Under the pieces are notes generated by a model. That model saw nothing but the letters and a program-made list of their open reading frames with translations, was not told where the DNA came from and ran no database searches. From Escherichia phage vB_EcoM_VR7, in sequence record NC_014792.1: a stretch of 64,000 nucleotides of DNA; one strand, given 5' to 3'. Of the stretch, positions 6,534 through 38,189 are shown one piece after another (within the stretch, counting starts at the first letter, position 1; every line of letters begins with the position of its first letter). The position numbers were made by a program, and so were the translations under genes.

Positions 6534-6564
6534 TTTGTTTTCCTCATCAGTAGTTGATGGGATA

Positions 6565-6594
6565 ATGATACATCATTCAAAGGGGCTTGTACAC
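6565..6594 (-). promoter_or_regulatory. Early-type promoter (GTGTACA ... TATCAT) overlapping a GGGG/CCCC hairpin
   Basis: Minus sense AAAGGGGTGTACAAGCCCCTTTGAATGATGTATCATTATCCCATCAACTACTG; cassette repeated elsewhere. Confidence 0.4.
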
Positions 6595-6600
6595 CCCTTT

Positions 6601-6918
6601 TTAATCTTCAATTAAGTCCTGGTCATACCCCAGGGATATCAGTTTTGTTTTAAAGGCAGGAATATTGGTCATTTTTTCATCATTGACAAAAATCACCGGG
6701 TAGCGAATGTTAAGGGTAGGATATCCAGCACGCTTAGCCAGAGACACGATTAAAGGCCTGTCATAAGCGATTTCAGAGCCTTGTTTGTTAAGGACTGAAT
6801 AGAATGTATAAGGAAGGTTTAAGGAGCCCAGAAGGCTCCTGACGTACATACAACCAGGACACCGCCCGACTTCTTCGGGAATGCCATAGATTTCAATTTT
6901 AGTCGAGTTTTGGCCCAC
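6601..6918 (-). CDS. Glutaredoxin/thioredoxin-fold protein with CPGC active site (NrdH-like)
   Basis: 105 aa; IEIYGIPEEVGRCPGCMYVRSLL. Confidence 0.55.
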   Translation of the reverse strand: MGQNSTKIEIYGIPEEVGRCPGCMYVRSLLGSLNLPYTFYSVLNKQGSEIAYDRPLIVSLAKRAGYPTLNIRYPVIFVNDEKMTNIPAFKTKLISLGYDQDLIED

Positions 6919-7198
6919 AGGAAATTACTCCTTGGTAGTTCCAGGTTTTAATAACTTCTTCATCACTGGTAGTTTCATACGGAATGTAAACCTGTATAAG
7001 GAAACCAGTGTCATCGAAAGAGAAATAAACTGTCGGTTTGATTCCATGAATCTCGGATTGAGCATAGATATCTTTAAGGTCTTCTTCCTTATCAGCAAAG
7101 AATTCCGGGTTCAGGTCACAGTCATGGAAGTACCATTCATCACCAAACTTGTCCCATGCGGTCCAATTAGTAGCTACATATTCTTCAAAACGTTTCAT
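6899..7198 (-). CDS. Hypothetical protein
   Basis: 99-aa ORF, tiling. Confidence 0.45.
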   Translation of the reverse strand: MKRFEEYVATNWTAWDKFGDEWYFHDCDLNPEFFADKEEDLKDIYAQSEIHGIKPTVYFSFDDTGFLIQVYIPYETTSDEEVIKTWNYQGVISCGPKLD

Positions 7199-7446
7199 TC
7201 TTTCACCTTCAGCATTTTTGCAATGGTATTATGAATAGCCTGGATTCTTTTGTTGAATTCAGAGCTTTCGAGGCCAGGATTAGTGCTTAACCAACCGATG
7301 ATAACAAACAGCAAACCAAACGGGATGGCCAGAATAAGCAGACAAACGATGAACAACACAAGCGTTATATTTGCCAGGATATCTGCCACCGCATTGCGAA
7401 AATTATTCATTAGAAAGGTCCTGTATTGGTTACGAGGAATAGCCAT
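7195..7446 (-). CDS. Hypothetical membrane protein
   Basis: 83 aa with hydrophobic stretch LVLFIVCLLILAIPFGLLFVIIGWL. Confidence 0.45.
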   Translation of the reverse strand: MAIPRNQYRTFLMNNFRNAVADILANITLVLFIVCLLILAIPFGLLFVIIGWLSTNPGLESSEFNKRIQAIHNTIAKMLKVKE

Positions 7447-7531
7447 TGAGAAGGATACTCGTCACCCATCAATCGTATTAAATTGTTTATAGCTTCGCCA
7501 ATACAATACACAATAATTCCATAAAAATTAA

Positions 7532-8005
7532 TCATTTAAGCGATTTCCTCAGTTGTTTTTTAAATGAAGCTTGTAGTTTAGGCTTCGTATCAGATTCATT
7601 ATAAGTCATGCCGTTCAAAAGCATTTCCTGAATCATTTCTTCTTTCCCCAGGCGACCGAACTCTTTGGCTTTGTCTGCCACAAAATTGGGGTGAATATTG
7701 TTTTCGGTATAATCAGATTTCAGATAGACAAGCAAACTCTCTAACCATTCCAGGTAGTCAACATTGCGACCTTTCAGACCCGAGCGGCTGAACTTATGCT
7801 TCATTTGTCCTTCTGTTCCATTGCACAGATTGCATAGTAACCCACGAACTTTACCGGCTTTTGGCCCGTTCAATTCGTGGTCATGGTCAAGATGGTTGGC
7901 CTGAACATCGGAGTCCAAATCACGGTGGCAAATTGGACACTTACCAGCTTGTGCATCATAAAGTTTTTGTTTTTCTTCTTTGTATAATTTGCCAGTCAAC
8001 AACAT
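7532..8005 (-). CDS. 49: Endonuclease VII (Holliday-junction resolvase) gp49
   Basis: 157 aa; MLLTGKLYKEEKQK...HLDHDHELNGPKAGKVRGLLCNLCN... matches remembered T4 gp49. Confidence 0.9.
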   Translation of the reverse strand: MLLTGKLYKEEKQKLYDAQAGKCPICHRDLDSDVQANHLDHDHELNGPKAGKVRGLLCNLCNGTEGQMKHKFSRSGLKGRNVDYLEWLESLLVYLKSDYTENNIHPNFVADKAKEFGRLGKEEMIQEMLLNGMTYNESDTKPKLQASFKKQLRKSLK

Positions 8006-8040
8006 AATAAACCCTTACCATTATTAGATAAGGGTATTTA

Positions 8041-8217
8041 TTAAATATTATAAAACGAGCGATGCAACCGTTTAAATTGTCGAATCATCTTTTTAGTAGG
8101 ACGAGTATATAATCCTACGCAGGTGACCATAAACCGGTCAGTAGGACTTCCTTTGATAAGAAGTTTCCAGACCTTACCACCATTTAACTTTTCGGTATAG
8201 ACTAATACAGTTTTCAT
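8041..8217 (-). CDS. Hypothetical small protein (58 aa)
   Basis: Manual translation MKTVLVYTEKLNGGKVWKLL...; TAATG overlap with upstream gene. Confidence 0.3.
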   Translation of the reverse strand: MKTVLVYTEKLNGGKVWKLLIKGSPTDRFMVTCVGLYTRPTKKMIRQFKRLHRSFYNI

Positions 8218-8489
8218 TAAACAATCCTAAAACAAGGATAATGACATTCAACGTTACCATTATCAATTATCATATACTCTGTGATACAAGTCCATGACCC
8301 TTCAATTTCTATGGTATCAAAAAGGTATTCATCTGCTTCAACAACGTCCCAAACATTACATTCAACATCAGGATCAAAACGTTGTCTTAACGCTTGGATA
8401 ACATCGCCATTTTTAAATCCTGTGTCTTGAAGCTCTTTCATAAAACCTGATTGAGCAGCAGCATGAATATTAACAATTTCTAAAAACAT
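8217..8489 (-). CDS. Hypothetical protein
   Basis: 90-aa ORF, tiling. Confidence 0.45.
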   Translation of the reverse strand: MFLEIVNIHAAAQSGFMKELQDTGFKNGDVIQALRQRFDPDVECNVWDVVEADEYLFDTIEIEGSWTCITEYMIIDNGNVECHYPCFRIV

Positions 8490-8662
8490 TAAAAGACCTC
8501 ATCAGAAAAGCGAAGTTGAGCTTCAAGCCAATGAATATAATCTGCTGCGGCAAAAATTAAAGCAGATTCTTCATCGGGTAACTTACGAGAATCCGACAGC
8601 TCGTAAAGAGAATGTTCAATTAAACGACCTTTATGTCGACCTACTTCAATTTTGGTACTCAT
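8489..8662 (-). CDS. Hypothetical small protein (57 aa)
   Basis: Manual translation MSTKIEVGRHKGRLIEHSLYELS...; TAATG overlap with downstream gene. Confidence 0.3.
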   Translation of the reverse strand: MSTKIEVGRHKGRLIEHSLYELSDSRKLPDEESALIFAAADYIHWLEAQLRFSDEVF

Positions 8663-8778
8663 ATCCAAACTCCATATCGATTAATTCATTGTTTGAAGGT
8701 TCATTATACTCTGTTTCGGAACCATTGTAAACAGGTTCCTCTGGCTCGACAGTTTCAAATCTACATACAAACCAAGGT

Positions 8779-9459
8779 TTATTCATTATTCTTTTTCCTA
8801 GCATCAGAAGCAGCTTTTCTTCTAGTTCTAGTCCTTTCTAAATCAGCAGCAATCAAATTAGCTATATTAGTAACCGGATTACCAAATTCATCATAAGTAA
8901 TATATTTCCAAGCATATCCAAATGTATGATTTCTCTCATTAAGCAGGCACCTTTTAATAGCGCTGCCTGCTTTATAAATTGAAAGAAATTTAGCTGCATC
9001 TGGTAAATAATCAAAAGTTTCTACCAATTCACCTGAACTTAAATCAAATGCACCAAAAAGCTCAATAGTGTATTTACTCCTATCAAGACTGGCTTTAGCT
9101 TCATGCTTTAAGTGGTTTATTTCTTTTAGAATTTTAAGGTCTAATTGTCCTGGTATTTTATCTATCTGTACACCCATTCTAGATAAAGCATACCCCATTT
9201 TATAGTTTCCTGATTTGGCCAACCAATAGTGAGCCATAATATGGCTTTCTATACTTAGATTTACAAGATTCCATTTAGACGTTTTAAATTCAGGAAATAA
9301 GGATTTAGGTAATATATGGTGAGACTCGGTTTTACCTTTTATTAAAGGCCCGGAAGACTCTATTAAAGAGAAATAGTTTTCAGCAAATTGCCAATAAGGC
9401 AATTTGCTTTTAAGAAGTTCTTTAATTTCGTCTAAGGTTTTAGTAGGCTTAACGGTCAC
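8779..9459 (-). CDS. HNH homing-endonuclease-like protein
   Basis: 226 aa; ESHHILPKS...NLVNLSIESH (HNH-type motif); AT-rich relative to neighbours. Confidence 0.6.
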   Translation of the reverse strand: MTVKPTKTLDEIKELLKSKLPYWQFAENYFSLIESSGPLIKGKTESHHILPKSLFPEFKTSKWNLVNLSIESHIMAHYWLAKSGNYKMGYALSRMGVQIDKIPGQLDLKILKEINHLKHEAKASLDRSKYTIELFGAFDLSSGELVETFDYLPDAAKFLSIYKAGSAIKRCLLNERNHTFGYAWKYITYDEFGNPVTNIANLIAADLERTRTRRKAASDARKKNNE

Positions 9460-10740: not shown

Positions 10741-11729
10741 TTCAGCAGCTCCAGAGCCTGTTCCAGTTTATCCAGACGATTGGTTGATTCTTCCCAAAGT
10801 CGCTTGGCTTTTGTATAATCTTCAGTTGCCTTTTTATTAACAGCAAGAGCTTCATTATACGCTGTTTCCAGGGCAACAATTTCAGGCGCTTTTTGTTTCA
10901 CTGGCTCATTATTCAGATTATCAATCAGGTCTTCAAGGGTAGTAACTTCTTGCGGTGCATTCATAATTTCCTCACTTTTCTTTTTATAGATTTCTGCATC
11001 AGTTGGCTGCTTTGCGCATTTAACTTCGCGTAATGTCACCACAATTTTCCAACCTTTCCAACCATGAGAACTGGTGATAGGGTCAACTTTAATTTTTTCA
11101 ACAGTGCGCATATAATTAAGTGCACACTGCAGCTGATGAGTGAGCGTGCATGCAACATCAAGATACTTTTTGATATTTTCAGGTGTAGCCTCTGGAGTAT
11201 AGAACTCATGCTTAACTGTAATAATTACCTGATTTTCACCAGAATCTTTAACCTTTACCATGTTCTCAGCCAGATGGTAGATAGTGCGAAAATCACCGCC
11301 CATCAATTTTGTTGCTGATTTTATGATAGACATTTTGTTATTTCTGAATTCACGCGCCCAACTGTTTGCAAATTCAGAAACAGTATAGCCTTGTTTATCA
11401 AGATAGTATTTTTCAACATCACCAAACCAATGATACCCAATTGTACCTTTACCACGTCTGGATTCAACACCAAACTTATTAAGAAGGTCTTTATTAACCA
11501 GGCATGCCAGGACTCGGGAACCTTTAAAAGTTTTCTTGATATCAGCATTACCAGCACGACTCGCAATAGTCGCGATGTCTTTCTTAAAACGACCGGATGC
11601 AACAATCGATGCGTCAATCTGATTTAACCAGAAATTGATAATCGAAAGGATAGCCGATTCACCTATTAATGGTTTTACTTTTGCATCGATAGTGGTGTTA
11701 AAGGCCTGGATATATTCGTTACGTGTCAT
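10737..11729 (-). CDS. Hypothetical protein with C-terminal coiled coil
   Basis: 330 aa; heptad-like C-terminus ...[13 protein letters not shown]. Confidence 0.55.
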   Translation of the reverse strand: MTRNEYIQAFNTTIDAKVKPLIGESAILSIINFWLNQIDASIVASGRFKKDIATIASRAGNADIKKTFKGSRVLACLVNKDLLNKFGVESRRGKGTIGYHWFGDVEKYYLDKQGYTVSEFANSWAREFRNNKMSIIKSATKLMGGDFRTIYHLAENMVKVKDSGENQVIITVKHEFYTPEATPENIKKYLDVACTLTHQLQCALNYMRTVEKIKVDPITSSHGWKGWKIVVTLREVKCAKQPTDAEIYKKKSEEIMNAPQEVTTLEDLIDNLNNEPVKQKAPEIVALETAYNEALAVNKKATEDYTKAKRLWEESTNRLDKLEQALELLK

Positions 11730-11756
11730 AGTGTTCTCCTCATAAAGTAGGAATTC

Positions 11757-11786
11757 ATTATACTCCCTCCATCCTTGGAAGTAAAC
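11757..11786 (-). promoter_or_regulatory. Early-type promoter (GTTTAC, 18 nt, TATAAT)
   Basis: Minus sense GTTTACTTCCAAGGATGGAGGGAGTATAAT then GAGGAG RBS and ATG. Confidence 0.45.
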
Positions 11787-11787
11787 A

Positions 11788-12669
11788 TTATTTTAATGCT
11801 TTGATTGCAGCTTGCAATTTATTGCGTTGCGTTTCCATGTTCTTGATGCGATTCAGGACATCCTGGATACCCTTCTTCTCATCTTCAATCAGACCATTTA
11901 AGCGGTTGACTGATTCCTTGATAGCATCCGCATGATAGCTCTCAATAGGCTTCATTGTTGGGTTAAAGATTTCAAGAGAGCTGGATGGCTGGACATTCCA
12001 TTTGTACATATTTTTAACGTCCAGTGGTGAAATTTTGGTCTGGTCATAAGATTTAAATTGACCTGCAAATGCTGGGCCATATGCCGCAGTAAGGGTACGT
12101 TCCATTTCTGGTTCCTTTTTCTCTTGATAAGGAGCATAAGACAAAAGATATTCTTTAGTTAATTTAATATCAATGGCTATAGTTTTAAGGAATTTTTCCG
12201 TTTGATGGATATAATTTGTATCTTCATCAAACGTGTATGATTCAACAGCATGGCGCATATAAAACAGCGCAATACCCATAACCTCTTTAAAGTTATGACA
12301 AAGAGCAACATCGCCCTTGGTGGTTGGTTTGAACTTAATCTGTACACCATCATTCTTGATATTAATAATCAAGTTATTGGAGTTGAAATTATAGTTCTTG
12401 ATGTTAATCGGAGCTTTGCGAATACGAAATCCGCCGGCCAGAATTTCCTTGATACTCTTACGAACCGTGGCACCAAACAAAAACGCTGGGCGGCGGCAAT
12501 AATCATTCAGAGAGTTAATTCTTACAATACGTTGGCCATACCCCTGGGTAGCAGAACCTGATTTGATTTTACCAAAGTTAACCAAAGAATTCATTGCGAT
12601 AAGACGAGCCACACGACCGTCATGTGGTTCATAACTACTAGCATATTCAGCGCGAGTTTTAATTTTCAT
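11788..12669 (-). CDS. Hypothetical protein with C-terminal coiled coil
   Basis: Track ORF 11788..12705 trimmed to Met at 12669 to avoid overlap; ends ...RNKLQAAIKALK. Confidence 0.5.
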   Translation of the reverse strand: MKIKTRAEYASSYEPHDGRVARLIAMNSLVNFGKIKSGSATQGYGQRIVRINSLNDYCRRPAFLFGATVRKSIKEILAGGFRIRKAPINIKNYNFNSNNLIINIKNDGVQIKFKPTTKGDVALCHNFKEVMGIALFYMRHAVESYTFDEDTNYIHQTEKFLKTIAIDIKLTKEYLLSYAPYQEKKEPEMERTLTAAYGPAFAGQFKSYDQTKISPLDVKNMYKWNVQPSSSLEIFNPTMKPIESYHADAIKESVNRLNGLIEDEKKGIQDVLNRIKNMETQRNKLQAAIKALK

Positions 12670-13799: not shown

Positions 13800-14324
13800 T
13801 TATGCGAGAACCGTCTTTAAACGCTCTTCAAACTTCTGAAGGAGTACCTGGCGCTCTGCTCTTTGTTTGGTATAGGTTTCAATACGCTCTGAAGTGAGAT
13901 TGTATTGTTCATTAACTGATTCCCGCATGAATTCAGGAATCTCTTTACATGCTTTGATTTCATTGAACTTATCAAGCACTGCTTGATGTTCAGCAATCAG
14001 ACCATCATAATATTGGATATCTGATTTGATGTTCTGTACATCAGATTCAGTTGGCATATTTTTCTTTACTCTTGCCGCTTGATACTCAGCATTAGTCTCT
14101 CTTGACCAGAACAAAGAGCGGTTTTTGTTAGTGTTTTTATACACATCAATAATACCAACTGAATCAACATTCACAATCCAGTTCCAGGCGTTTTTATAAG
14201 TTTGACCACCTGATACTGTAATCTCACCTGCACAAGCAACATCATTAAAGAACTTGCTTTGTGCTTCTGATTTAAAATTACCATTATTGTAATTAATCAG
14301 ATTAAAGATTGATTTGGCTTCCAT
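13800..14324 (-). CDS. Hypothetical protein with C-terminal coiled coil
   Basis: 174 aa; ends ...LLQKFEERLKTVLA. Confidence 0.55.
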   Translation of the reverse strand: MEAKSIFNLINYNNGNFKSEAQSKFFNDVACAGEITVSGGQTYKNAWNWIVNVDSVGIIDVYKNTNKNRSLFWSRETNAEYQAARVKKNMPTESDVQNIKSDIQYYDGLIAEHQAVLDKFNEIKACKEIPEFMRESVNEQYNLTSERIETYTKQRAERQVLLQKFEERLKTVLA

Positions 14325-14358
14325 TTTATTCTCCAGTTTGGTAACTCAGTATGGGAAC

Positions 14359-14388
14359 ATTATACGTCTATCCCATACTGATGTACAC
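14359..14388 (-). promoter_or_regulatory. Early promoter-leader cassette (GTGTACA ... TATAAT ... ACTGAGTTACCAAA ... GGAGAA)
   Basis: Minus sense GTGTACATCAGTATGGGATAGACGTATAATGTTCCCATACTGAGTTACC. Confidence 0.5.
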
Positions 14389-14390
14389 AT

Positions 14391-14693
14391 TTAATTAAAA
14401 GTTCTTTCAGTATTTTCACCACTGAACCAGGCGCTCTTAACGGCTTGCTGTGCGCGATGAATCTGTTCAGCCATATAAACACCAAGGGCCTCTGCTTTTC
14501 TTGTCCTGTGGGCTTCTGCGGCGACCATTTGCAGCTTATCCATCATGATAAGAGCTTTACATTTCTCCTTCAGAGCATAACGTTTCTTCTCTTCTGGAGT
14601 TTTGACCATTCCTCTTAACTTGTGCATTTTCAACTTAAAATGGTCAGCAGATTTCAGACATGCATCAATCATGTCAATTTCATACTTTTTCAT
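14391..14693 (-). CDS. Hypothetical protein
   Basis: 100-aa ORF. Confidence 0.5.
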   Translation of the reverse strand: MKKYEIDMIDACLKSADHFKLKMHKLRGMVKTPEEKKRYALKEKCKALIMMDKLQMVAAEAHRTRKAEALGVYMAEQIHRAQQAVKSAWFSGENTERTFN

Positions 14694-14699
14694 AATTCC

Positions 14700-14906
14700 T
14701 CACTTGCGACGGCGTTTTGGTAATGGTTTAGGGAAGAACATTGCTTTACCTGCAGGGGTCAAAGTCACACGCAAAGCATTACCAATACCAAGGGATGCTT
14801 TAACCAGACCTTTGGCTTTTAACTCACCAAATGCTTGACGTTGTTCAGGGTCACGAGTGTTAACCATCAGACCTTTTTCACCAGCAGCTTTGATTAATTC
14901 TAACAT
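14700..14906 (-). CDS. Hypothetical basic protein
   Basis: Track ORF 14700..14975 trimmed: its N-terminus is translated promoter/leader; ATG at 14906 follows GGAGAA RBS. Confidence 0.5.
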   Translation of the reverse strand: MLELIKAAGEKGLMVNTRDPEQRQAFGELKAKGLVKASLGIGNALRVTLTPAGKAMFFPKPLPKRRRK

Positions 14907-14946
14907 TTTATTCTCCAGTTTTATTTGGTAACTCAGTATGGAATCA

Positions 14947-14975
14947 TTATGCCTCATGACCATCTGGTTGTACAC
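14947..14975 (-). promoter_or_regulatory. Early promoter-leader cassette
   Basis: Minus sense GTGTACAACCAGATGGTCATGAGGCATAATGATTCCATACTGAGTTACC. Confidence 0.5.
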
Positions 14976-14987
14976 TACTTTTTAAAA

Positions 14988-15010
14988 TAAAAAAGGACCC
15001 CGAAGGGTCC
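14988..15010 (-). terminator. Rho-independent terminator (GGACCC-TTCG-GGGTCC + U-run)
   Basis: Perfect hairpin 14995-15010 with A-run on plus side (U-run for minus transcript), directly after 15017..15313. Confidence 0.55.
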
Positions 15011-15016
15011 TTTGTA

Positions 15017-15313
15017 TTATTTCTTACAACCAACATATTTTGGCATATGACAGAAAACAGAATCGGTAACTACTCGACCCTTTGCCCATGCTTCCTGTGC
15101 TTTACCGTGAGTAGTATTCACATAGCTGGATTTAATATTCTCAATACCTTGAGAATGTGATGCGTGTGCAGAACCATTAGAAGGACCTGCTGACTGACTT
15201 GAACTTTGACCGCCGGTGGAACCACCAGGGCCTGATGTGCCTTCAGTAGCCAGTACACCAAAAGACATAACAGCGGCCAACAGGCCTATAGCCACTTTTA
15301 ATTTTAATTTCAT
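15017..15313 (-). CDS. Secreted Gly/Ser-rich small protein
   Basis: 98 aa; signal-peptide-like MKLKLKVAIGLLAAVMSFGVLA then low-complexity G/S/Q region. Confidence 0.5.
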   Translation of the reverse strand: MKLKLKVAIGLLAAVMSFGVLATEGTSGPGGSTGGQSSSQSAGPSNGSAHASHSQGIENIKSSYVNTTHGKAQEAWAKGRVVTDSVFCHMPKYVGCKK

Positions 15314-15376
15314 ATTTTCACCTTTTATTAACTCAACATTGAGTATGTTTACTATACTACAAAATCATTGAAGCAC

Positions 15377-15619
15377 TTAAATTGCACTCCAAAAATTATG
15401 GAATCTGATATCATCGATAGCCCAGTTAGCAAACTCGCGGGTTTGCTTGGGAGTTGGTTTACATATGTACTTATTGTTGATTCGTCTGCCAGTTTCCCGA
15501 CAGACTGCTTCGAGATACCAGCGCCGACCTTTATTGGGTCTTCCATATGATAAGAAGACCTTCATTTCTTCATTAACGATAATAGGAATTGTGGTTGTCA
15601 AGATATACCTCTTCAACAA
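15377..15619 (-). CDS. Hypothetical protein
   Basis: 80-aa ORF; alternative frame 15352..15546 also open. Confidence 0.35.
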   Translation of the reverse strand: MLKRYILTTTIPIIVNEEMKVFLSYGRPNKGRRWYLEAVCRETGRRINNKYICKPTPKQTREFANWAIDDIRFHNFWSAI

Positions 15620-16583
15620 ACTTGTCCCAGAACTTCATGTCTACCTTATCGGGCATACCGTTCTTTGCCGCCCAGATGGCATTGGTTTCGACTTCATCGA
15701 CGATTGCTTCAAGTTCAGCTTGTACATCTTTAAAAGCGTGTAGGCCTTGTTTGATTTCAAGGATAAATGGAGCCGTACGTAAAGGATATTGGAGATCGCC
15801 TTTTTGATAGATTTCCTTTAACTGGTATCCAGCACGATAAGCATGACTCAGCGCTTTCCAGTCAATACCTTCGTTAGCTTCGGCCTTACGAGCGCGTTCA
15901 CCATATTCGGCATCAAGTTTATTCAGAGATTGCTTAAGCTCGATTAATGACAAAGTAGTTTGGTATTTGCGACCGAGAACAGTATAAAACGTTTGAGGTC
16001 CAGTTTTCTCATGGTTATGGAATACCCATTCACAGAATTCATTCTCTGGGAGACGATGCTTAATATCTTCAACTTTAGTGCGACGTTGTTTAGTCGTACC
16101 ATCTTCTTGGTAGTCAACCCACTGTTCAGGAATCTGGTTAACAATTGCCAGTACACCACGTAAAGCCGCCAGTCTAGAACCTTTAACACCATATTTTGAA
16201 GCTTGCTTACGGACGTACCCCAAATATGCTTTCATGTTGGTCGTATAGAACCGTGAACGGTTGTCTTGGATAAATTTCCATACATCTGGTAAATCGGATT
16301 TGACTACCAGGTTAGCCGGAGTGTGAATCATGTCTAGAGCAACAGTTTCACCCTCAGCCGCCAATTTAAAGAAATATTTCAGACTATACAATTCATGGTC
16401 AACATCATCTTTTGTGTTCTTGGATGCAGTGTTGTTAGTATTCAAGTTGGTATGGTTCATAGCCGTACCTAACAGAATGTCACGTGGGTGTGGAACAAAG
16501 ATTTCCTTAAAATCGACATCAGATTCAGGAGTACTTGTTCCATAAAGATGGCTACCGAAGTAGCCTTTCATAACTGTTCTCAT
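15573..16583 (-). CDS. Nucleotidyltransferase-fold protein (Pol-beta-type GS...DxD motif)
   Basis: 336 aa; GYFGSHLYGTSTPESDVDF near N-terminus then helical domain; ATGA coupling with upstream membrane gene. Confidence 0.55.
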   Translation of the reverse strand: MRTVMKGYFGSHLYGTSTPESDVDFKEIFVPHPRDILLGTAMNHTNLNTNNTASKNTKDDVDHELYSLKYFFKLAAEGETVALDMIHTPANLVVKSDLPDVWKFIQDNRSRFYTTNMKAYLGYVRKQASKYGVKGSRLAALRGVLAIVNQIPEQWVDYQEDGTTKQRRTKVEDIKHRLPENEFCEWVFHNHEKTGPQTFYTVLGRKYQTTLSLIELKQSLNKLDAEYGERARKAEANEGIDWKALSHAYRAGYQLKEIYQKGDLQYPLRTAPFILEIKQGLHAFKDVQAELEAIVDEVETNAIWAAKNGMPDKVDMKFWDKFVEEVYLDNHNSYYR

Positions 16584-17032: not shown

Positions 17033-17041
17033 AATAATTCC

Positions 17042-17599: not shown

Positions 17600-17609
17600 T
17601 TTCTGTTCC

Positions 17610-17900
17610 TCAACGGTTATGTTTTAAAATACTATAAAGAGCTTCTACTTGACTTGCATCCAGGTAAATAACATCATCATCTTGCTCAATGGAAATCCCA
17701 CCGGTATTTCCTTCAACGAAATTACATTCACACACTTCAACGGTACGGTACACATCACCAGTCGGATGCTCAGGCTCCAGAACAATCACACCATTTTCAG
17801 AATTACCACTTGGGTCATATAACATTACAGTTTCCTCGCTAACCATGAAAAGAATAAACCAATTAAAACAGGCCCTACAGCCATTATTAACCAAGCCCAA
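17610..17900 (-). CDS. Hypothetical protein
   Basis: 96-aa ORF. Confidence 0.4.
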   Translation of the reverse strand: MGLVNNGCRACFNWFILFMVSEETVMLYDPSGNSENGVIVLEPEHPTGDVYRTVEVCECNFVEGNTGGISIEQDDDVIYLDASQVEALYSILKHNR

Positions 17901-18550: not shown

Positions 18551-18553
18551 ATG

Positions 18554-18790: not shown

Positions 18791-18993
18791 TATTCCACCA
18801 CATATGATAATGAGAAAATTGCTGATGAAAGATGAGTAGCATCTTCTTCACACAGTTCAAATGGAGCTTTCTGCAAGAGTTCAACCACTTCTTCATCAGT
18901 GGCACTGTCCATAAAGATTGCATAATCATTAAGATAGATAACAACCTCATCACCAGTATTAACTGCATCAATCTTGATGTTCTTAATTCTCAT
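18790..18993 (-). CDS. Hypothetical protein
   Basis: 67-aa ORF downstream of promoter cassette. Confidence 0.45.
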   Translation of the reverse strand: MRIKNIKIDAVNTGDEVVIYLNDYAIFMDSATDEEVVELLQKAPFELCEEDATHLSSAIFSLSYVVE

Positions 18994-19015
18994 TGTATTC
19001 TCCTCAGTAGTTGAT

Positions 19016-19054
19016 GGGATAATAGTACACCCTTTTGATGAGGATGTAAACCCC
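19016..19054 (-). promoter_or_regulatory. Early promoter-leader cassette
   Basis: Minus sense GGGGTTTACATCCTCATCAAAAGGGTGTACTATTATCCCATCAACTACTG. Confidence 0.45.
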
Positions 19055-19060
19055 TAAATG

Positions 19061-19086
19061 AAAAAAGGTCCACCCGAAGGCAGACC
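19061..19086 (-). terminator. Rho-independent terminator (hairpin + U-run)
   Basis: GGTCTGCC-TTCG-GGTGGACC imperfect hairpin with A6 on plus side, directly after 19094..19477. Confidence 0.5.
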
Positions 19087-19093
19087 TTTTGAA

Positions 19094-22451: not shown

Positions 22452-22910
22452 TTAGATATAAATCACTTTTGTGCTAATTTTTCCTTCCAGACGATTAGAG
22501 TTAACAAACGCCATACGACAACACATGGTTGGAGACTTCCCAGGAAGAGCTGGGTTAACTGTCATTCCTAACCATAAGTTCTTGTCTGTGATTTCCAGAC
22601 GAAGTGGACGGTAGTTCACATTCGGGTCAATTTGTGCTTCAACTTCCGGGAGTGGTTTCATCTCCAGGAATTCAACAATTTCTTTTACATGTGGTGTGAT
22701 TTTTCCAAACAAGTCAAAAACATATTGTTCGTCAATTTCACGTTGGATTGCACGGTCCAACAGGTGTGGACTGTACTTAATGAAGAATGCTTCAAGGCCT
22801 GCTTCTTTACAAGCCTTGTTGATAGCATTATTAATTTTGAGGAACTCCGTTTCAAAAATACGACGAAGTTTATTGCGGCGAATGTAAACACTTGAATCGA
22901 TAGTAGTCAT
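22452..22910 (-). CDS. regB: Endoribonuclease RegB
   Basis: Track ORF trimmed to Met at 22910 (upstream part is translated promoter); MTTIDSSVYIRRNKLRRIFETEF...LLDRAIQREIDEQYVF matches remembered T4 RegB. Confidence 0.8.
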   Translation of the reverse strand: MTTIDSSVYIRRNKLRRIFETEFLKINNAINKACKEAGLEAFFIKYSPHLLDRAIQREIDEQYVFDLFGKITPHVKEIVEFLEMKPLPEVEAQIDPNVNYRPLRLEITDKNLWLGMTVNPALPGKSPTMCCRMAFVNSNRLEGKISTKVIYI

Positions 22911-22933
22911 GATTATCTCCTTTTGTTTGATGG

Positions 22934-22967
22934 GATAATCATAACTCATTTCAACCTGCTTGTACAC
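22934..22967 (-). promoter_or_regulatory. Early promoter-leader cassette upstream of regB
   Basis: Minus sense GTGTACAAGCAGGTTGAAATGAGTTATGATTATCCCATCAAACAAAAGGAG. Confidence 0.5.
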
Positions 22968-23314
22968 TATTCTTTAAAACGAATTAGCTTATTTAATGAC
23001 TGTGAGACTTCAGCACGAACAGCGTGTAAATTCTTAAGCTGTTCAAGGCGTTGCTCGTAGTAAGCAATTTCATCTTCTTCAAGACAGTCGTTTGAATCTT
23101 CTTTAAGATAGTTCCCGTAGTCCTGAAAGGCCTTACGAATAACTTCCTGGAAATCATCTAGACTTTGAATTTTTGGCTGTTTCGATGTGAATCCAAACGG
23201 ATTGGAATCATTTATGCGGCGATGAGAAGCGGTTGATAACTCATAACCAAAACCAGAATTAATCTGCGCCATTAGTATTTTTCCTCGGGTCGAAATACTG
23301 CACGACATGCCCAC
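22967..23314 (-). CDS. Hypothetical protein
   Basis: 115-aa ORF. Confidence 0.4.
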
Positions 23315-24727: not shown

Positions 24728-25027
24728 TTAAAAAGAACCAGAGCCTTTAATTGTGTTCTGGCGACCTTTATTTTCGAATTCAGAATGGTCGATTTCGTAT
24801 GCTTGTGCTACGCCAAAGGCCTTTTTAACTTTAGCTAAAGAACCTTTAGATGTAACAATATTAAAAGTATTGCCTTTGGTAAAATCAACCAAATCCACTT
24901 GCACACCCTGTTTACCGAGGCTTGCTACAATAGCATCAACATATTGTTGGTCTAAATTGCCTTGAACCCCAATTTGAAATGCTTTAGGAACTTTGGCTTC
25001 TGTGATAAATTCTTGATAAGTTAACAT
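24728..25027 (-). CDS. Internal-protein-like (capsid-targeting-sequence-bearing) protein
   Basis: 99 aa; N-terminus MLTYQEFITE matches T4 IP capsid-targeting sequence. Confidence 0.55.
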   Translation of the reverse strand: MLTYQEFITEAKVPKAFQIGVQGNLDQQYVDAIVASLGKQGVQVDLVDFTKGNTFNIVTSKGSLAKVKKAFGVAQAYEIDHSEFENKGRQNTIKGSGSF

Positions 25028-25056
25028 TATACACTATCCCATCATAAAGTAAACAG

Positions 25057-25320
25057 TTAAGCTTTACCGCCAGAAACAATACCAAAGGTCTCAAAGTCCC
25101 ATTCAATATCGTCAACATCAACTTTCTTACCAGCAACCACAAATGCGATTTCGCGGCGTTTTGCATAGGTAACAATTTCTTTGCCATCGCCGCCAAAGAA
25201 AGAATAACCATTGCGCTTCATGGTGCCAAAGTCTTCAGCATCACCAGCGAAGGCACGGACTTTAAAGGAGCCAGCAGGAGCTTTAGCAGATTCAGTAATA
25301 AATTCTTGATAAGTTTTCAT
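25057..25320 (-). CDS. Internal-protein-like (CTS-bearing) protein
   Basis: 87 aa; N-terminus MKTYQEFITES. Confidence 0.6.
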   Translation of the reverse strand: MKTYQEFITESAKAPAGSFKVRAFAGDAEDFGTMKRNGYSFFGGDGKEIVTYAKRREIAFVVAGKKVDVDDIEWDFETFGIVSGGKA

Positions 25321-25333
25321 AATGTCTCTTTAG

Positions 25334-25648
25334 TTAAGCTTTAGGGAAATCGCGCAAAAACGCATCATAAAGTTTATTACCAATGCGACGGAATGCTTTT
25401 GCCGCATGAACGTTATCTGGGTTTGCAATTTTAATCTGCATTACATGACTACCAGCCCATGATTTAGCTTCGTCATAATAACCTTTAATTTCTTTAATAG
25501 TCTTGCGTTTTCCACCAGGACCATCGACAGTAATTTTCCACGAACCAGTGCTTGTTTCACTTGGTGGGGTTAACTGTTCAATCCAGACATAACCACCTTC
25601 AACACGTTGTTGAGTAGATTCAGTAATAAATTCTTGATAAGTTTTCAT
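25334..25648 (-). CDS. Internal-protein-like (CTS-bearing) protein
   Basis: Track ORF trimmed to MKTYQEFITEST start at 25648; upstream codons are translated promoter. Confidence 0.55.
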   Translation of the reverse strand: MKTYQEFITESTQQRVEGGYVWIEQLTPPSETSTGSWKITVDGPGGKRKTIKEIKGYYDEAKSWAGSHVMQIKIANPDNVHAAKAFRRIGNKLYDAFLRDFPKA

Positions 25649-25678
25649 TTTATATTCCATTGTTTGGTTGATAAAATC

Positions 25679-25705
25679 ATTATACAACCTTTTTAGTTAA
25701 GCGTA
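25679..25705 (-). promoter_or_regulatory. Middle-type promoter (CGCTTAA, 12 nt, TATAAT)
   Basis: Minus sense TACGCTTAACTAAAAAGGTTGTATAAT. Confidence 0.45.
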
Positions 25706-26113
25706 CACAGCTTTCCCATAGTATTTGTACCAGGTAGGCTTTTGAGAAATTTTCTCATTCAGTCTGGATTGACTGATTTCAATTGACCAGATTGATGGTT
25801 GATAATCATTCTTCCATTCATCAGGAATATCATTTAAATCTTGGGTAGAAATATCTTTTATATTAAACCCTCGCTTTAAACATTCAGCAATAAGTTCTTG
25901 ATGACGGTTTTTAAGGAACAAAAGCTTATCATAAAAGAAGGTGACATGACCAGTCCCTAAAAGAAAAGATGATGGGATTTTAAAGTCAGACACCTTTTTA
26001 CCATTTTGCACATGCTTACGAACAGCACCAAACACGCGAGGAAGCTCACGGTATTCAGCCATAAGGTGTTGGTCAGCAAGTTCAGATACCAGGGTTAAAT
26101 TAATGCGAGTCAT
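25697..26113 (-). CDS. denV: Endonuclease V (pyrimidine-dimer DNA glycosylase) DenV
   Basis: 138 aa; [34 protein letters not shown]...[13 protein letters not shown] matches remembered T4 DenV. Confidence 0.95.
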
Positions 26114-26139
26114 GTTTGTTCTCCGTAGTTGATAGGGTC

Positions 26140-26169
26140 ATTATAACCCTATCGTTTGGAGATGTAAAC
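26140..26169 (-). promoter_or_regulatory. Early promoter (GTTTACA, 17 nt, TATAAT) upstream of denV
   Basis: Minus sense GTTTACATCTCCAAACGATAGGGTTATAATGACCC. Confidence 0.5.
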
Positions 26170-26657
26170 TAATAAGCGTCAAAAGTTCCAGTACGGAAAG
26201 TTTCAATAACTCGTTTGGCCCGGTTTGGAGTCTGGACTTTATACCATCTTGAGTCCGCCAGTTCCTTAGCAGCAGCTTCCCACGATTTGGCCTTGAGCAA
26301 TCGCAGCCCCTTAGGAAAACCAGCAACACCAGCAACACCCATTTGGAATACCATATTAATGAGTGCGCAACGACGAACTTCATCCAGTACATCATAAACA
26401 GGTTTTAAGACAGGATGTTTCAAGATTCCGGCTTTAGCTTTTTCGACCGAACGATTAAACAATGTTTCGGCTTCGTGCTGGGTTATACGGCCATTACAGA
26501 CGCGACCCATGAGCTTGTCGAGCTCGGCACGAGCAACATCTTTCGATGGGTTCTTAGTTATCAGTTGCCCGATACCGATGGTCCAATAACCTTCGGTATC
26601 TTTATACAAATCCAACTTACAACCTTCATCTATGCGTAACATTTCGAATATATTCAT
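26169..26657 (-). CDS. e: Lysozyme (endolysin) e
   Basis: 162 aa; [12 protein letters not shown]...[14 protein letters not shown]...[25 protein letters not shown] matches T4 lysozyme. Confidence 0.95.
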
Positions 26658-34733: not shown

Positions 34734-35153
34734 TTAACTTGACCATCCCCAACCTTCGGAAGGACCATCGTAGTGTACACAAATATCAGGTGAAATATTA
34801 AAATTGGCTTCGTCCGAAGAAAAAACACCCAACTTTTTACCAAACTCACTGAAGCAGAATTGTTCGCCGCCCGGAGCCCAAACATCTTCAAATAAAACAG
34901 TGAATAGCCAGCCAGCAATTAAATCTGCATCAAATTCTGTTACACCTGAACACATTTCATATAACTCGTCATCACAGACTGTAGCCACGATATGGGCCAA
35001 ATGACTTTCAGATTTTAACCAGATGCGAATTAAATTACCATCAAAACAATTGTAGTTAATTTCGGATGGCTGGCAGTTATAAAATACTTCTGTAGCGATT
35101 TCTGGATTTTCCCAAGTTTCGTCGTTAAAATTGATAAGAATAGGAGTAATCAT
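34734..35153 (-). CDS. Hypothetical acidic protein
   Basis: 139-aa ORF immediately upstream of tRNAs. Confidence 0.45.
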   Translation of the reverse strand: MITPILINFNDETWENPEIATEVFYNCQPSEINYNCFDGNLIRIWLKSESHLAHIVATVCDDELYEMCSGVTEFDADLIAGWLFTVLFEDVWAPGGEQFCFSEFGKKLGVFSSDEANFNISPDICVHYDGPSEGWGWSS

Positions 35154-35650: not shown

Positions 35651-35836
35651 TTACTCACCTTTAGACATTTTATCCATAACGAAAGAGATTGAACCAATTA
35701 AGAATGCAACTACTAAAGAGATTATATTCTCAGAAGTTGAAAGCATATTCAACATAAAGCCAGCAAACATGCTAAAACCAAAAGCGGTAACAGCAACAAG
35801 GGCAGTAACATTTCTAATTAATTCGCAACGTTTCAT
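35651..35836 (-). CDS. Small membrane protein
   Basis: 61 aa, two hydrophobic helices; follows promoter cassette. Confidence 0.4.
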   Translation of the reverse strand: MKRCELIRNVTALVAVTAFGFSMFAGFMLNMLSTSENIISLVVAFLIGSISFVMDKMSKGE

Positions 35837-35864
35837 TTTATTCTCCTCATTAGTTGATGGGATA

Positions 35865-35895
35865 ATTATACACTATCCCATATCTAAAAGTACAC
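35865..35895 (-). promoter_or_regulatory. Early promoter-leader cassette
   Basis: Minus sense GTGTACTTTTAGATATGGGATAGTGTATAATTATCCCATCAACTAATGAGGAG. Confidence 0.5.
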
Positions 35896-36129
35896 TTATT
35901 TTTTACGGAAAATTGATTTATACTGTTTAGCCCATTTCTCGATAACTTCTGCTGGACCCTGGATAACAAAATAGTCCCCAAACTCTTCACCGCCGAGCTG
36001 ACCGTAATTATCTAAGGCGTCGCGGAGAGTTCCATAAGGCATTTCGCCCATTTTATCTTTCTTGCCGGTGTAAATGAATTGCACTTTAACATCAGCAGTT
36101 TCATTAATAAATTCTTGATAAGTTTTCAT
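35896..36129 (-). CDS. Internal-protein-like (CTS-bearing) protein
   Basis: 77 aa; N-terminus MKTYQEFINET. Confidence 0.6.
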   Translation of the reverse strand: MKTYQEFINETADVKVQFIYTGKKDKMGEMPYGTLRDALDNYGQLGGEEFGDYFVIQGPAEVIEKWAKQYKSIFRKK

Positions 36130-36154
36130 GTTGTCTCCAGTAGTTGATGGGATA

Positions 36155-36184
36155 ATTATACTGCAGTTATCCCATCACGTACAC
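36155..36184 (-). promoter_or_regulatory. Early promoter-leader cassette
   Basis: Plus strand gttgatgggataattatactgcagttatcccatcacgtacac. Confidence 0.5.
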
Positions 36185-36462
36185 TAAATTTTTGTATATT
36201 GTCCAGCTTTAACTTTTTTCAGTTCACGAGGGCTTACCGCGTAAGTGAATGGAGCATTCCAGGAAGAACTGACTTTGTAACCTTTAGTCAACATCATTGC
36301 TGAAACTTTCTTGTTATCAGGACCGTTTTCGCCTTTAACAAGAAACAACTCAAATGCGCCACCATCAACCGGTTTGGCCTTAACCATCAGATGTCCTTTC
36401 AGGTCTTCCAGCATATCCGGGTGACTAATTGATTCGTTAATAAATTCTTGATAAGTTTTCAT
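36184..36462 (-). CDS. Internal-protein-like (CTS-bearing) protein
   Basis: 92 aa; N-terminus MKTYQEFINES. Confidence 0.6.
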   Translation of the reverse strand: MKTYQEFINESISHPDMLEDLKGHLMVKAKPVDGGAFELFLVKGENGPDNKKVSAMMLTKGYKVSSSWNAPFTYAVSPRELKKVKAGQYTKI

Positions 36463-36487
36463 GTTGTCTCCAGTAGTTGATGGGATA

Positions 36488-36517
36488 ATTATACTGCAGT
36501 TATCCCATCGTGTACAT
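36488..36517 (-). promoter_or_regulatory. Early promoter-leader cassette
   Basis: Plus strand gttgatgggataattatactgcagttatcccatcgtgtacat. Confidence 0.5.
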
Positions 36518-36816
36518 TACATTTTTGAACCGCGAATCACGCCATAAGCTGCGAAGTCGTCAGTGATGTTCTTAGGGGTGTTTTTACCAGTTTCAATATA
36601 TGCGATGCTGGATTTCTGACCAAATGAGGTAATTTTATTATAGTTAGAGTCAAGGAAAGTATAACCATTTTTACGCAGCTGGTCAAAGTCTTCAGCGTCG
36701 CCTTTACCTTTGAAGTCAACCCATTTGTATGTGTTTTTCTTCTGAAGGCCCAGAGGCCAGGTTTTTGCTTCTGCCAGGTAATTATTTTCTACCAAAAATT
36801 CGTGGAGCGTTTGCAT
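36517..36816 (-). CDS. Internal-protein-like (divergent CTS) protein
   Basis: 99 aa; N-terminus MQTLHEFLVEN. Confidence 0.5.
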   Translation of the reverse strand: MQTLHEFLVENNYLAEAKTWPLGLQKKNTYKWVDFKGKGDAEDFDQLRKNGYTFLDSNYNKITSFGQKSSIAYIETGKNTPKNITDDFAAYGVIRGSKM

Positions 36817-36824
36817 TTGAAATC

Positions 36825-37097
36825 CTATTTTAGATAAATTGCATATTTTTTATAACCAGCTGTCTCATGGCGGAGACCCTTGTCATTGGCAAAACGCTCA
36901 ATGTTATTAATTTGGTTCTGGTCAAGTTCAGAGATGTCAAACGCGAAAAAGTTGCGTTTGTTACCAATTGTTATATGGTCAGTCAAGTCAATGCTATACA
37001 AGTGATTGATATTGTCAATCATAGCTTTGACTGCTTTACTAATTTTTACTTCTTCATTCAGTTGGGACTCGTTGAAAAGTTCATTAAAAGTTTTCAT
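36825..37097 (-). CDS. Internal-protein-like (divergent CTS) protein
   Basis: 90 aa; N-terminus MKTFNELFNES. Confidence 0.5.
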   Translation of the reverse strand: MKTFNELFNESQLNEEVKISKAVKAMIDNINHLYSIDLTDHITIGNKRNFFAFDISELDQNQINNIERFANDKGLRHETAGYKKYAIYLK

Positions 37098-37105
37098 AAG
37101 AAACC

Positions 37106-37438
37106 TTATTTATACAGTTTAGCCAGTTCTTTACGTCCGCGAGCAGACATAATGAATTGTTCATCACCAATTTTGAAATAAGCCATACCACCGTCAACAG
37201 CGATGCCAATTTCTTTAGTACCTTCTTTGCCTTTCCACTTGCCACCAGATTTTAGGACAGCTTCAACCGCAGCTTTGGAATATTTGGACGTTTGAAAACG
37301 TTCATTACCAATCTGAAAGAAAACACCATCTGCATTTTTGGATAAACCAAATTTCAGAGAGCCTTCACTATCATCAATTGATTTGGTCTCATTGATGGCG
37401 GATTCGGCTAAAAACTCGTTATAAGTCTTGATGTTCAT
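37106..37438 (-). CDS. Internal-protein-like (divergent CTS) protein
   Basis: Track ORF trimmed to MNIKTYNEFLAES start at 37438 after GGAG RBS. Confidence 0.5.
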   Translation of the reverse strand: MNIKTYNEFLAESAINETKSIDDSEGSLKFGLSKNADGVFFQIGNERFQTSKYSKAAVEAVLKSGGKWKGKEGTKEIGIAVDGGMAYFKIGDEQFIMSARGRKELAKLYK

Positions 37439-37468
37439 TTTAACTCCGTTTGTTCGTTGGTGTAGGAA

Positions 37469-37498
37469 CATAATACTGCACCTACACTCATTTGTACA

Positions 37499-37499
<1 letters not shown>
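37469..37499 (-). promoter_or_regulatory. Early promoter (GTGTACAAA ... TATTAT)
   Basis: Minus sense GTGTACAAATGAGTGTAGGTGCAGTATTATG. Confidence 0.5.

Positions 37500-38189
<690 letters not shown>

Follow-up and report, generated by a model that had tools for sequence, protein, structure and literature searches.

Early-promoter cassettes of Escherichia phage vB_EcoM_VR7 very probably belong to the T-even class, and about half carry a hairpin that only read-through RNA could fold

The early promoters of T-even phages form an "über" UP/−35/−10 class (PMC2988021), and repeated promoter-stem-loop cassettes, the PeSLs, have been published for T4-type phages (PMC2839356, PMC4122927), whose authors already pointed to analogous elements at the internal-protein (IP) loci of the T-even phages (PMC2839356). 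In the T4 genes e, soc, 49 and I-TevI, the promoter lies within the 5′ arm of an inhibitory hairpin (PMC3014915). Here we describe a promoter-leader cassette repeated in a 64,000-nucleotide stretch of Escherichia phage vB_EcoM_VR7 (NC_014792.1; the whole stretch is called the window, and positions are counted from its first base). The repeats are, very probably, immediate-early promoters of the T-even class and of the published PeSL kind, about half of them with a hairpin accessible to read-through RNA only, and gene swapping looks like a by-product.

The source of the window is a T4-like coliphage of the genus Gaprivervirus: bases 14,000–20,000 are 96% identical to Escherichia phage vB_EcoM_VR25, and approximately 680 records of T-even type are more distant matches. 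Over the interval of about 1–41.5 kb, the minus strand carries the genes in T4 order (47, 55, nrdH, 49, pin, nrdC, mobD, rI, tk, vs, regB, IP genes, denV, e, the tRNA region, more IP genes, 57B, 1, 3, 2, 4), and plus-strand late genes come next. Our comparison set consisted of ten relatives (VR25 and nine others), all Gaprivervirus (Straboviridae, Tevenvirinae); because of their common ancestry, events and substitutions among them are non-independent. Genes were modeled by a simple tiling of open reading frames (ORFs) preceded by a Shine–Dalgarno (SD) sequence. A literature search found no open paper on VR7-type promoters, and an Rfam scan of the whole window returned two tRNAs only and no family for the cassettes.

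Cassettes as candidate T-even early promoters

A hidden Markov model (HMM) built from 19 sites and run over the window returned exactly those 19 cassettes (Table 1), with E-values of 1.5e-14 to 4.5e-5, all within 6,527–37,506 of the minus strand; the next-best match had E = 0.4, and there was no cassette on the plus strand, in the late-gene half, or outside 6.5–37.5 kb. The original prediction had counted at least 17 such sites, and a relaxed −35/−10 pattern gave about 20 convincing ones on the minus strand. Direct-repeat families of 33–95 nt connect cassette sites. A generic sigma-70 consensus scan gave no useful enrichment (64 hits vs. 52.6 expected and 60 vs. 48.6 expected), and the phage-specific cassette model is the only one that stands out. 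The unit is longer than the 40–60 bp first proposed, at about 75–90 nt, and less pervasive: rather than flanking most small early genes, cassettes precede 19 of the approximately 78 minus-strand genes in 6.3–37.5 kb.

The architecture that had been predicted, a GTGTACA or GTTTACA −35 element, a TATAAT-like −10 box, a leader and a GGAG ribosome-binding site, is present at the sites. From 5′ to 3′, a cassette is composed of the upstream gene's stop codon with an A-rich tract, the −35, the spacer, the −10, the leader, a GGAG-type SD, and the ATG. All 19 copies have T[GT]TAC[N], a spacer of 16–18 nt (mostly 17 nt), and [TC]A..[AT]T, the pattern of a sigma-70-type early promoter; the −35 is TGTACA or TTTACA, as (G)TGTACA/GTTTACA, and the −10 is typically TATAAT or CATAAT. 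In most copies the upstream stop codon lies 0–7 nt from the −35 box, in a recurring "...aaaaa(g/t)TAG" directly followed by TGTACA (e.g., "...aaaaaGTAG" followed by TGTACA), so that the A-rich tract upstream of the promoter is formed by the last codons of the preceding gene. The leader is 19–45 nt long and is followed by GGAG or GAGG and then ATG, the SD and start codon being found at the 3′ end of 18 of the 19 copies; the exception is the truncated cassette 12.

The two conserved leaders first noticed in these repeats are far above chance. The type A string TCCCATACTGAGTTACCAAA has 4 minus-strand matches at no more than 3 mismatches against 0.00 expected, and the type B string TATCCCATCAACTACTG has 7 (5 of them with at most 1 mismatch) against 0.11 expected; the cassettes with the type A (CCATACTGAGTTACCAAA) and type B (TATCCCATCAACTAcTG) leaders, and with variants of either, are given in Table 1. 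The conserved initial transcribed region starts with ATCAACTAC or ATACTGAGTTACCAAA, and the type B leader, by its sequence, appears to belong to the conserved initial transcribed region of the T-even early promoter class.

Four cassettes (14974, 14387, 33122, and 35894; a single number denotes the first T of the −35 hexamer) share the SD GGAGAATAAAA, an exact match to GGAGRAYARAA, the consensus of the strong RegB/S1 cleavage site (PMC3014915), with near matches at 26168, 19050, and 33641. The phage encodes regB itself, behind cassette 22966, and rapid inactivation by RegB is predicted for the four messages; the cassettes would thus predict which messages RegB inactivates. For annotation, the cassettes provide reliable starts for 18 small early genes and expose spurious GTG-initiated extensions, as had been suspected: the mechanical ORFs 14700..14975, 22452..22967, and 33136..33642 open at the GTG of the −35 "GTGTACA", while the ATGs preceded by an SD are at 14906, 22910, and 33561.

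Whole-cassette BLAST suggested that the cassettes are restricted to the genus, with 9–15 matches to a type A cassette per Gaprivervirus genome, but we rejected this on the basis of profile and pattern searches, in which the architecture and the type B leader are found in T4 and in many T4-like contigs. Searching T4 (NC_000866, 40–78 kb) by nhmmer with the window model gave hits upstream of trna.4, regB, nrdC.4, 55.6, mobD.5, ipI, nrdC.8, and denV, and ipII and ipIII have the same layout in front of them. The T4 layout is GTTTAC, 17 nt, TAcTAT, and often a leader "cTATCAACTAC...GGAG", the leader "TATCAACTAC...GGAG" being common to T4 and VR7. Cassette 8731 lies inside the 49.1-like coding region, just as its T4 counterpart lies inside gene 49.1. 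In IMG/VR, a pattern with free spacer and free bases after the −10 found 41 distinct T4-like promoters with the leader common to T4 and VR7, and type A cassettes also occur in Morganella phage MP1 (Gualtarvirus), where the depositors found them with MEME and annotated them as promoters. The cassettes of VR7 thus have the features of T4-type early promoters (a GTTTAC-like −35, a TAnnAT −10, a UP-like tract, and orthologous positions), and since T4 has the same architecture at orthologous genes, we take them to be ordinary T-even early promoters of the PeSL kind. The promoter-leader nature assigned to the repeats originally is borne out by the leaders, the GGAG sites and this orthology.

Cassette 25053 has lost its leader and SD, and its −10 box TATAAT plus the following G is the start codon of an ip7-like gene; four relatives (TH44, VR20, 212, and TH54) have kept the full leader at this site. 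As the predicted transcription start of this cassette lies downstream of the ATG, the ip7-like gene probably depends on read-through RNA.

A hairpin across the promoter

In about half of the cassettes, the promoter spacer is the 5′ arm of a hairpin that holds the −10 box in its loop and whose 3′ arm opens right after the −10; in a few, the 3′ arm covers the SD instead. For nine of the 19, a fold that loops out the −10 box is predicted at a ΔG of −9 to −17.5 kcal/mol (z-scores −2.4 to −6.3), and a tenth (25707) reaches −7.4. Two cassettes have upstream terminators, two have stems around the −35, and some are stemless, so that the proposed match to the published promoter-stem-loop cassettes stands as to kind, with the stem-loop itself in only about half of the copies. 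As the 5′ arm lies upstream of the predicted transcription start, folding is open only to RNA transcribed through the promoter from further upstream.

The complementarity is specific to each cassette. The best helix between spacer and downstream segment has a mean length of 6.58 bp, compared with 4.77 ± 0.23 bp for shuffled spacers (0/2000 reach the observed value) and 5.67 ± 0.26 bp for spacers matched with the downstream segment of another cassette (p = 0.0015). Among 197 cassette instances (85 distinct) from the window and its ten relatives, the stem columns have 10 variants in 184 columns, with pairing kept in 8 of the 10, while unpaired spacer columns have 24 variants in 95 and the −10 box has 5 in 66: the hairpin arms are as conserved as the −10 box, and they covary. 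One full compensatory change is found among the relatives, from GATGGGATA/TATCCCATC to AATGGGATA/TATCCCATT. Furthermore, the mismatches that are tolerated have a strand: allowing G·U pairs lengthens the helices by 1.11 where 0.88 ± 0.08 is expected, and allowing A·C pairs, which are G·U on the opposite strand, by 0.98 where 1.40 ± 0.11 is expected, the difference of +0.13 comparing with −0.52 ± 0.12 (0/300 shuffles reach it). Arms that are conserved, that covary, and that tolerate G·U on the sense strand only point to a role in the RNA that reads through the promoter.

This asymmetry, favoring a sense-strand RNA structure, also bears on the idea that the inverted repeats act in DNA, either as an operator for a dimeric regulator at the −10 or as a cruciform affecting promoter opening or endonuclease VII. 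In its favor are the centering of the repeat on the −10 box, the endonuclease VII gene of the phage, and a speculation of the PeSL authors about a DNA-binding protein. In duplex or cruciform DNA, however, one would not expect substitutions to produce sense-strand G·U pairs while avoiding A·C; the arms differ among cassettes yet stay complementary (GATGGGATA, GATAGGGT, GTGTAGG, TGGAATT, TGGGGCT), which argues against a sequence-specific operator; and both arm position and loop length vary. We regard action in DNA as very improbable and have set the sequence-specific operator and the cruciform aside on the grounds of the variable complementary arms and the asymmetry.

Cognate pairing, the basis of the read-through RNA hairpin, extends beyond the genus. 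In T4, the cognate spacer helix averages 8.62 bp against 5.72 ± 0.31 bp, and helices of 10–14 bp lie over the SD in regB, denV, and nrdC.8 and around the −10 box in ipI and ipII. The first three (promoters at positions 22798, 25414, and 13944 of the NC_000866 40000–78000 stretch) pair the promoter spacer with their own SD region, regB through 14 bp (TTTCCTCTTGACTG/CAGTTAAGAGGAGA), denV through 10 bp (TCTCCTGTAG/CTACAGGAGA), and nrdC.8 through 12 bp (GTTCCTCTGTGG/CTACGGAGGAAC), and their predicted SD accessibility falls from 0.4–0.6 to 0.00 in read-through RNA. Among the T4-like promoters from IMG/VR, taken as 19 independent spacer families, the cognate helix measures 7.89 bp against 6.17 ± 0.26 bp for non-cognate combinations (0/5000 derangements reach the observed value). 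Finally, the type A cassette at 404–488 of Morganella phage MP1 has its arms, ACTCAGTATG/CATACTGAGT, shifted relative to the CAGTATGGGA/TCCCATACTG of the window, so that the register differs and the pairing is kept.

The only function to which we commit is that the hairpin would tell read-through RNA from locally initiated RNA. In the mechanism that we propose, the sigma-70 RNA polymerase of the host would read the cassettes right after infection, each compact cassette filling the whole gap between two genes; the own-promoter transcript, which would lack the 5′ arm, would stay open, and the read-through RNA would fold. The hairpin may then mark or handicap the read-through RNA, by attenuation, by masking of the ribosome-binding site or by protection from RegB, so that each gene would be expressed mainly from its own promoter. 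Protection enters as a further option because RNA structure is known to shield GGAG from RegB (PMC3014915).

Masking would make the hairpins translational switches of the gene e type, in which the ribosome-binding site is hidden in read-through RNA and own-promoter RNA alone is translated. T4 e, soc, 49, and I-TevI are an established precedent (PMC3014915), the spacer pairs with the SD in T4 regB, denV, and nrdC.8, the helix overlaps the SD in 22 of the 34 T4-like promoters from IMG/VR that have a helix of at least 6 bp, and masking-type behavior is predicted in the window for cassette 26168 as well as for 19050, 33122, and 32754. The commonest hairpin of the window, however, stops 10–25 nt upstream of the SD; the SD of cassettes 36516, 37498, and 25707 is more accessible with the local hairpin than with shuffled upstream sequence; and the overall accessibility test is non-significant (p = 0.11). 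Pairing of the SD or AUG in the long transcript is thus a property of cassette 26168 and a few others singly and not of the cassettes as a set, for which we consider masking rather doubtful.

Less probable still is that the stem-loops are transcription terminators or attenuators that halt read-through from upstream promoters, as was proposed for the PeSLs. The stem-loop of one RB49 PeSL cut downstream lacZ expression as strongly as rrnB T1 (PMC2839356), and the VR7 hairpins fold in read-through RNA alone and carry the sense-strand G·U signature. True intrinsic terminators precede two cassettes, which suggests that sites like these call for shielding from transcription that arrives from upstream. 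Hairpins enclosing the −10, on the other hand, lead into ATCAACTAC or GTTACCAAA with no U-run, and none was caught by our terminator scan; their AT-rich stems measure 7–11 bp and their loops up to 15 nt, while canonical GC-rich UUCG-loop terminators are used where the phage clearly terminates.

Several points count against the interpretation of the cassettes as early promoters with a read-through RNA hairpin. Promoter activity and transcription start sites are deduced from consensus and orthology, and hairpin function likewise from the sequence. Between seven and nine cassettes have no convincing hairpin. The hairpins of the window mostly exclude the SD, whose predicted accessibility in read-through RNA is 0.31 compared with 0.35 for shuffled upstream sequence (Wilcoxon p = 0.11; p = 0.19 in T4), and as canonical intrinsic terminators the −10 hairpins had to be rejected too, with no U-tract and 0 found in the terminator scan, the two real terminators lying upstream of cassettes. 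The conservation and asymmetry tests rest on related, non-independent sequences. Additionally, the template-switch "correction" of quasi-palindromes, a mutational process of T4, could keep inverted repeats without selection.

Tentatively, and with less than even confidence, we suggest that spacer-encoded hairpins are a general design rule of T-even early promoters and not occasional terminators. This rests on the sense-strand G·U signature and on the finding that spacers are specifically complementary to their cognate partners, in the window as in T4 and the 19 independent promoter families. If so, every early gene would make an open own-promoter RNA and a folded read-through RNA, two species that could differ in translation, RegB cleavage, or stability; the gene e/soc paradigm, so far four late-promoter cases, would come to include early promoters as a whole class; and the "SL" part of the PeSLs would be reinterpreted. 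More generally, if the hairpin is an RNA-level feature shared with T4, the early units of T4-like phages may carry a built-in distinction between local and read-through RNA.

Gene exchange, individual cassettes, and neighboring genes

The original prediction invoked a proposal that cassettes of this kind mediate modular gene shuffling, in which case breakpoints in relatives should be associated with them. Chained BLAST alignments of window bases 1–43,000 to the ten relatives gave 85 distinct breakpoints in 1–38.5 kb, positioned to within approximately 10–15 nt, 16 of them inside cassettes, whose share of the region is 5.2% (p = 7e-6). This per-base excess arises because breakpoints lie at gene boundaries in general, and as an effect of the cassettes it is gone once conditioned on gene junctions: 10 of 19 cassette junctions bear a breakpoint compared with 33 of 77 others (Fisher p = 0.30), and for gaps of at least 40 nt the figures are 9/16 and 9/16. 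The association thus holds per base and not per junction, and what stands of modular shuffling is that replacements do end in cassettes, chiefly at the IP loci and at 32736..33051. The gene 32757..33053 has been replaced between two type A cassettes (6 and 7) in five relatives, IP gene bodies have been exchanged between a cassette plus its capsid-targeting codons and the next cassette, and, at the denV cassette, the leader contains one end of an ip5 insertion.

Genes next to a cassette, on whichever side, occur in a mean of 7.4 of the ten relatives, compared with 8.9 for the rest (p = 0.015), while cassette-driven genes do not differ significantly from the others (7.7 vs. 8.5 of 10, p = 0.12). 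That the cassettes "bracket exactly the variable content" could not be upheld: 10 of the 17 scorable cassette-driven genes are present in all ten relatives, many of them conserved T4 orthologues (regB, denV, nrdC.4, nrdC.8, pin), and the window-specific genes 33997..34551 and 34734..35153 have a cassette on neither side.

These figures also bear on a view of the cassettes as recombination linkers or mobile regulatory units whose main role would be the excision, insertion, and swapping of flanking genes in an integron-like manner, as in the PeSL mini-circle model. Mini-circles were demonstrated experimentally in RB49/phi1 (PMC2839356), and the per-base breakpoint count, the somewhat greater variability of cassette-flanked genes, the exchanges with both ends in or at cassettes (32736..33051 in five relatives, 25031..26173, 30489..30533, and the IP locus from 35909 to 36809), and cassette 12, which resembles a recombination scar, are all in keeping with such a role. 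We nevertheless consider it unlikely, since cassette junctions are broken no more often than others, most scorable cassette-driven genes are present throughout the relatives, many indels, like the two window-specific genes, are at junctions without a cassette, and no recombinase is implied. Moreover, T4, which belongs to another genus, has cassettes at the orthologues of the same genes, and cassette positions have therefore been stable over long times. The cassettes mark gene-swap points weakly, and read as promoters that incidentally offer homology and not as dedicated mobility elements. Being near-identical direct repeats in a recombination-proficient phage, they would double as homology patches for gene replacement, as a by-product and not a purpose. 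As regards phage evolution, the view of promoter cassettes as drivers of modular shuffling is tempered by this result: breakpoints in this genus are no commoner at them than at other gene boundaries.

Table 1. The 19 cassettes of the window (ΔG in kcal/mol; coordinates of sequences within a cassette are on the same strand)
No.	Coordinates	Strand	−35, first T	Promoter, leader and SD	Hairpin or stem	Gene and remarks
1	37438..37518	−	37498	−35 TGTACA; −10 TATTAT; GGAG; ATG 37438	GTGTAGG/CCTACAC around −10 box; ΔG −14.8, z −3.6	VR7 gp156-like gene
2	36462..36536	−	36516	type B	GATGGGATA/TATCCCATC, −10 box in loop; ΔG −12.9	IP gene; repeat D6
3	36129..36203	−	36183	type B	10 bp, TGATGGGATA/TATCCCATCA; ΔG −13.8	ip6-like gene; breakpoint at 36191 in 4 relatives
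4	35836..35914	−	35894	type B; SD GGAGAATAAAA (35836–35850)	ATGGGATA/TATCCCAT	trna.4 homologue; orthologous T4 promoter
5	33561..33661	−	33641	type A-like (variant), 45 nt; −10 CATAAT	small hairpin within spacer (CCGG...CCGG)	repeats D3, D8
6	33053..33142	−	33122	type A; SD GGAGAATAAAA (33053–33067)	GTGGGATA/TATCCCAT; ΔG −16.1	
7	32683..32774	−	32754	type A; −10 CATAAT	TGGAATT/GATTCCA, long loop	
8	30476..30553	−	30533	type B variant (TATCTCGTCAACTAAT)	none around −10; weak TTTAG/CTAAA around −35	several breakpoints, 30473 to 30553
9	28623..28699	−	28679	−10 CATAAT	TGGGGCT/GGTCCCA; ΔG −13.1; two G·U pairs in VR7, perfect Watson–Crick in relatives	abutted by window-specific gene 28683..29333
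10	26113..26188	−	26168	type B variant	inner GATAGGGT/ACCCTATC, outer TCTCC/GGAGA pairing over SD; ΔG −13.6, z −6.3	denV promoter; predicted SD unpaired 0.43 in own transcript vs. 0.01 in read-through
11	25648..25727	−	25707	type B variant GATTTTATCAACCAAA	GGTTG/CAACC; ΔG −7.4	ip10-like gene
12	25027..25073	−	25053	truncated; −35, spacer, and −10 kept		ip7-like gene; HMM E 4.5e-5; breakpoints at 25022 to 25057
13	22910..22986	−	22966	type B variant	no significant hairpin	regB promoter; orthologous T4 regB promoter
14	18993..19090	−	19050	type B	spacer TCCTCA pairs with SD TGAGGA	mobD.5 homologue; UUCG-loop intrinsic terminator upstream, 19090–19063
15	14906..15013	−	14974	type A; SD GGAGAATAAAA (14906–14920)	ΔG −9.1	UUCG-loop intrinsic terminator upstream, 15013–14992; breakpoint precisely on −35 box, 14975
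16	14324..14407	−	14387	type A; SD GGAGAATAAAA (14324–14338)	11 bp around −10, TCAGTATGGGA/TCCCATACTGA; ΔG −17.5, z −5.0	nrdC.8 homologue
17	11729..11805	−	11785	own leader GAATTCCTACTTTATGAGGAG	weak pairing only	nrdC.4 homologue; orthologous T4 promoter
18	8662..8751	−	8731		GGTTC/GAACC, not conserved among relatives	pin promoter; within 49.1-like coding region; HMM E 2.3e-7
19	6533..6613	−	6593	type B	G/C stem AAAGGGG/CCCCTTT encloses −35; weak TGATG/CATCA around −10	55.6 homologue; repeat D1

The two canonical intrinsic terminators listed with cassettes 14 and 15 lie directly upstream of them and have C(UUCG)G-type tetraloops and U-runs; terminator-promoter composites of this sort are described for T4/PST. 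At the IP loci (24728–25660 and 35896–37097, minus strand), the N-termini of seven or eight genes have the capsid-targeting sequence MKTYQEF in common (repeat families D2 and D4); of these, 36825..37097 carries no early cassette but a late promoter (TATAAATA at 37114). A tandem array of five small paralogous genes (65–96 aa; 30580–31839, minus strand) has a common C-terminal end and ribosome-binding site (repeat family D9), differs in copy number among the relatives, and has breakpoints at 30819..31032.

The window-specific 33997–34551 (minus strand) is an ORF of 184 aa with a T5orf172/MUG113 domain (Pfam E = 2.7e-8), absent from all ten relatives; it adjoins tRNA-Arg and tRNA-Met (34571–34726), a position that, we presume, recalls the homing endonuclease segB of the T4 tRNA cluster. 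Three other minus-strand ORFs, 8779–9459, 28683–29333, and 34734–35153, have no Pfam match and are present in 0, 1, and 0 of the ten relatives, respectively; the first two abut cassettes on the downstream side, and the third has none. Finally, the window lacks the anaerobic ribonucleotide reductase genes nrdG and nrdD, and at 7410–7535 a 124-nt stretch with a 41-aa ORF stands in place of the 2,399 nt found in 7 of the 10 relatives; next to it, a 55.8-like ORF (7195..7446) and gene 49 are intact.

Comparison with known systems

Among the closest known systems are the early promoters of T4 (PMC2988021), with which the VR7 cassettes share the consensus, the spacing, the A-rich upstream tract, the "TATCAACTAC" initial transcribed region, and orthologous positions at regB, denV, nrdC.4, nrdC.8, trna.4, and the IP genes. 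They differ in the −35, which is mostly TGTACA in VR7 and TTTACA in T4, and in the type A leader, which was found in T4 neither by whole-cassette BLAST of the phage collection nor among the T4 leaders recovered by nhmmer.

Like the PeSLs (Arbiol et al. 2010, PMC2839356; Comeau et al. 2014, PMC4122927), the VR7 unit fills the intergenic gap with an A/T-rich tract, a sigma-70-type early promoter, a stem-loop, an SD, and an ATG, is repeated many times in early or hyperplastic regions, has some indel ends inside it, and occurs in degraded "half" copies (cassette 12 in VR7). In contrast, the VR7 promoter is of the T-even type (GTGTACA/GTTTACA) where PeSL promoters have a near-perfect TTGACA, the VR7 stems vary and are AT-rich instead of GGGG...CCCC, and the unit includes two discrete conserved leaders and RegB-type SDs; furthermore, VR7 has no breakpoint excess over other gene junctions, and a terminator function is doubtful for its stems.

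The promoter/stem-loops of T-even IP loci, as far as they are summarized from Repoila et al. (1994) in PMC2839356, are likewise early promoters with AT-rich stem-loops before IP genes, and there too the IP bodies are swapped between the conserved promoter with its capsid-targeting sequence and the next promoter; compared with the elements so summarized, the VR7 cassette also drives many conserved non-IP genes outside the IP loci. The hairpins of T4 e, soc, 49, and I-TevI (PMC3014915) share with VR7 a promoter in the 5′ arm or loop, and long transcripts that fold while local ones do not. They differ in having late promoters and in sequestering the SD or AUG in every case, whereas the promoters of VR7 are early and the SD is included in few cassettes.

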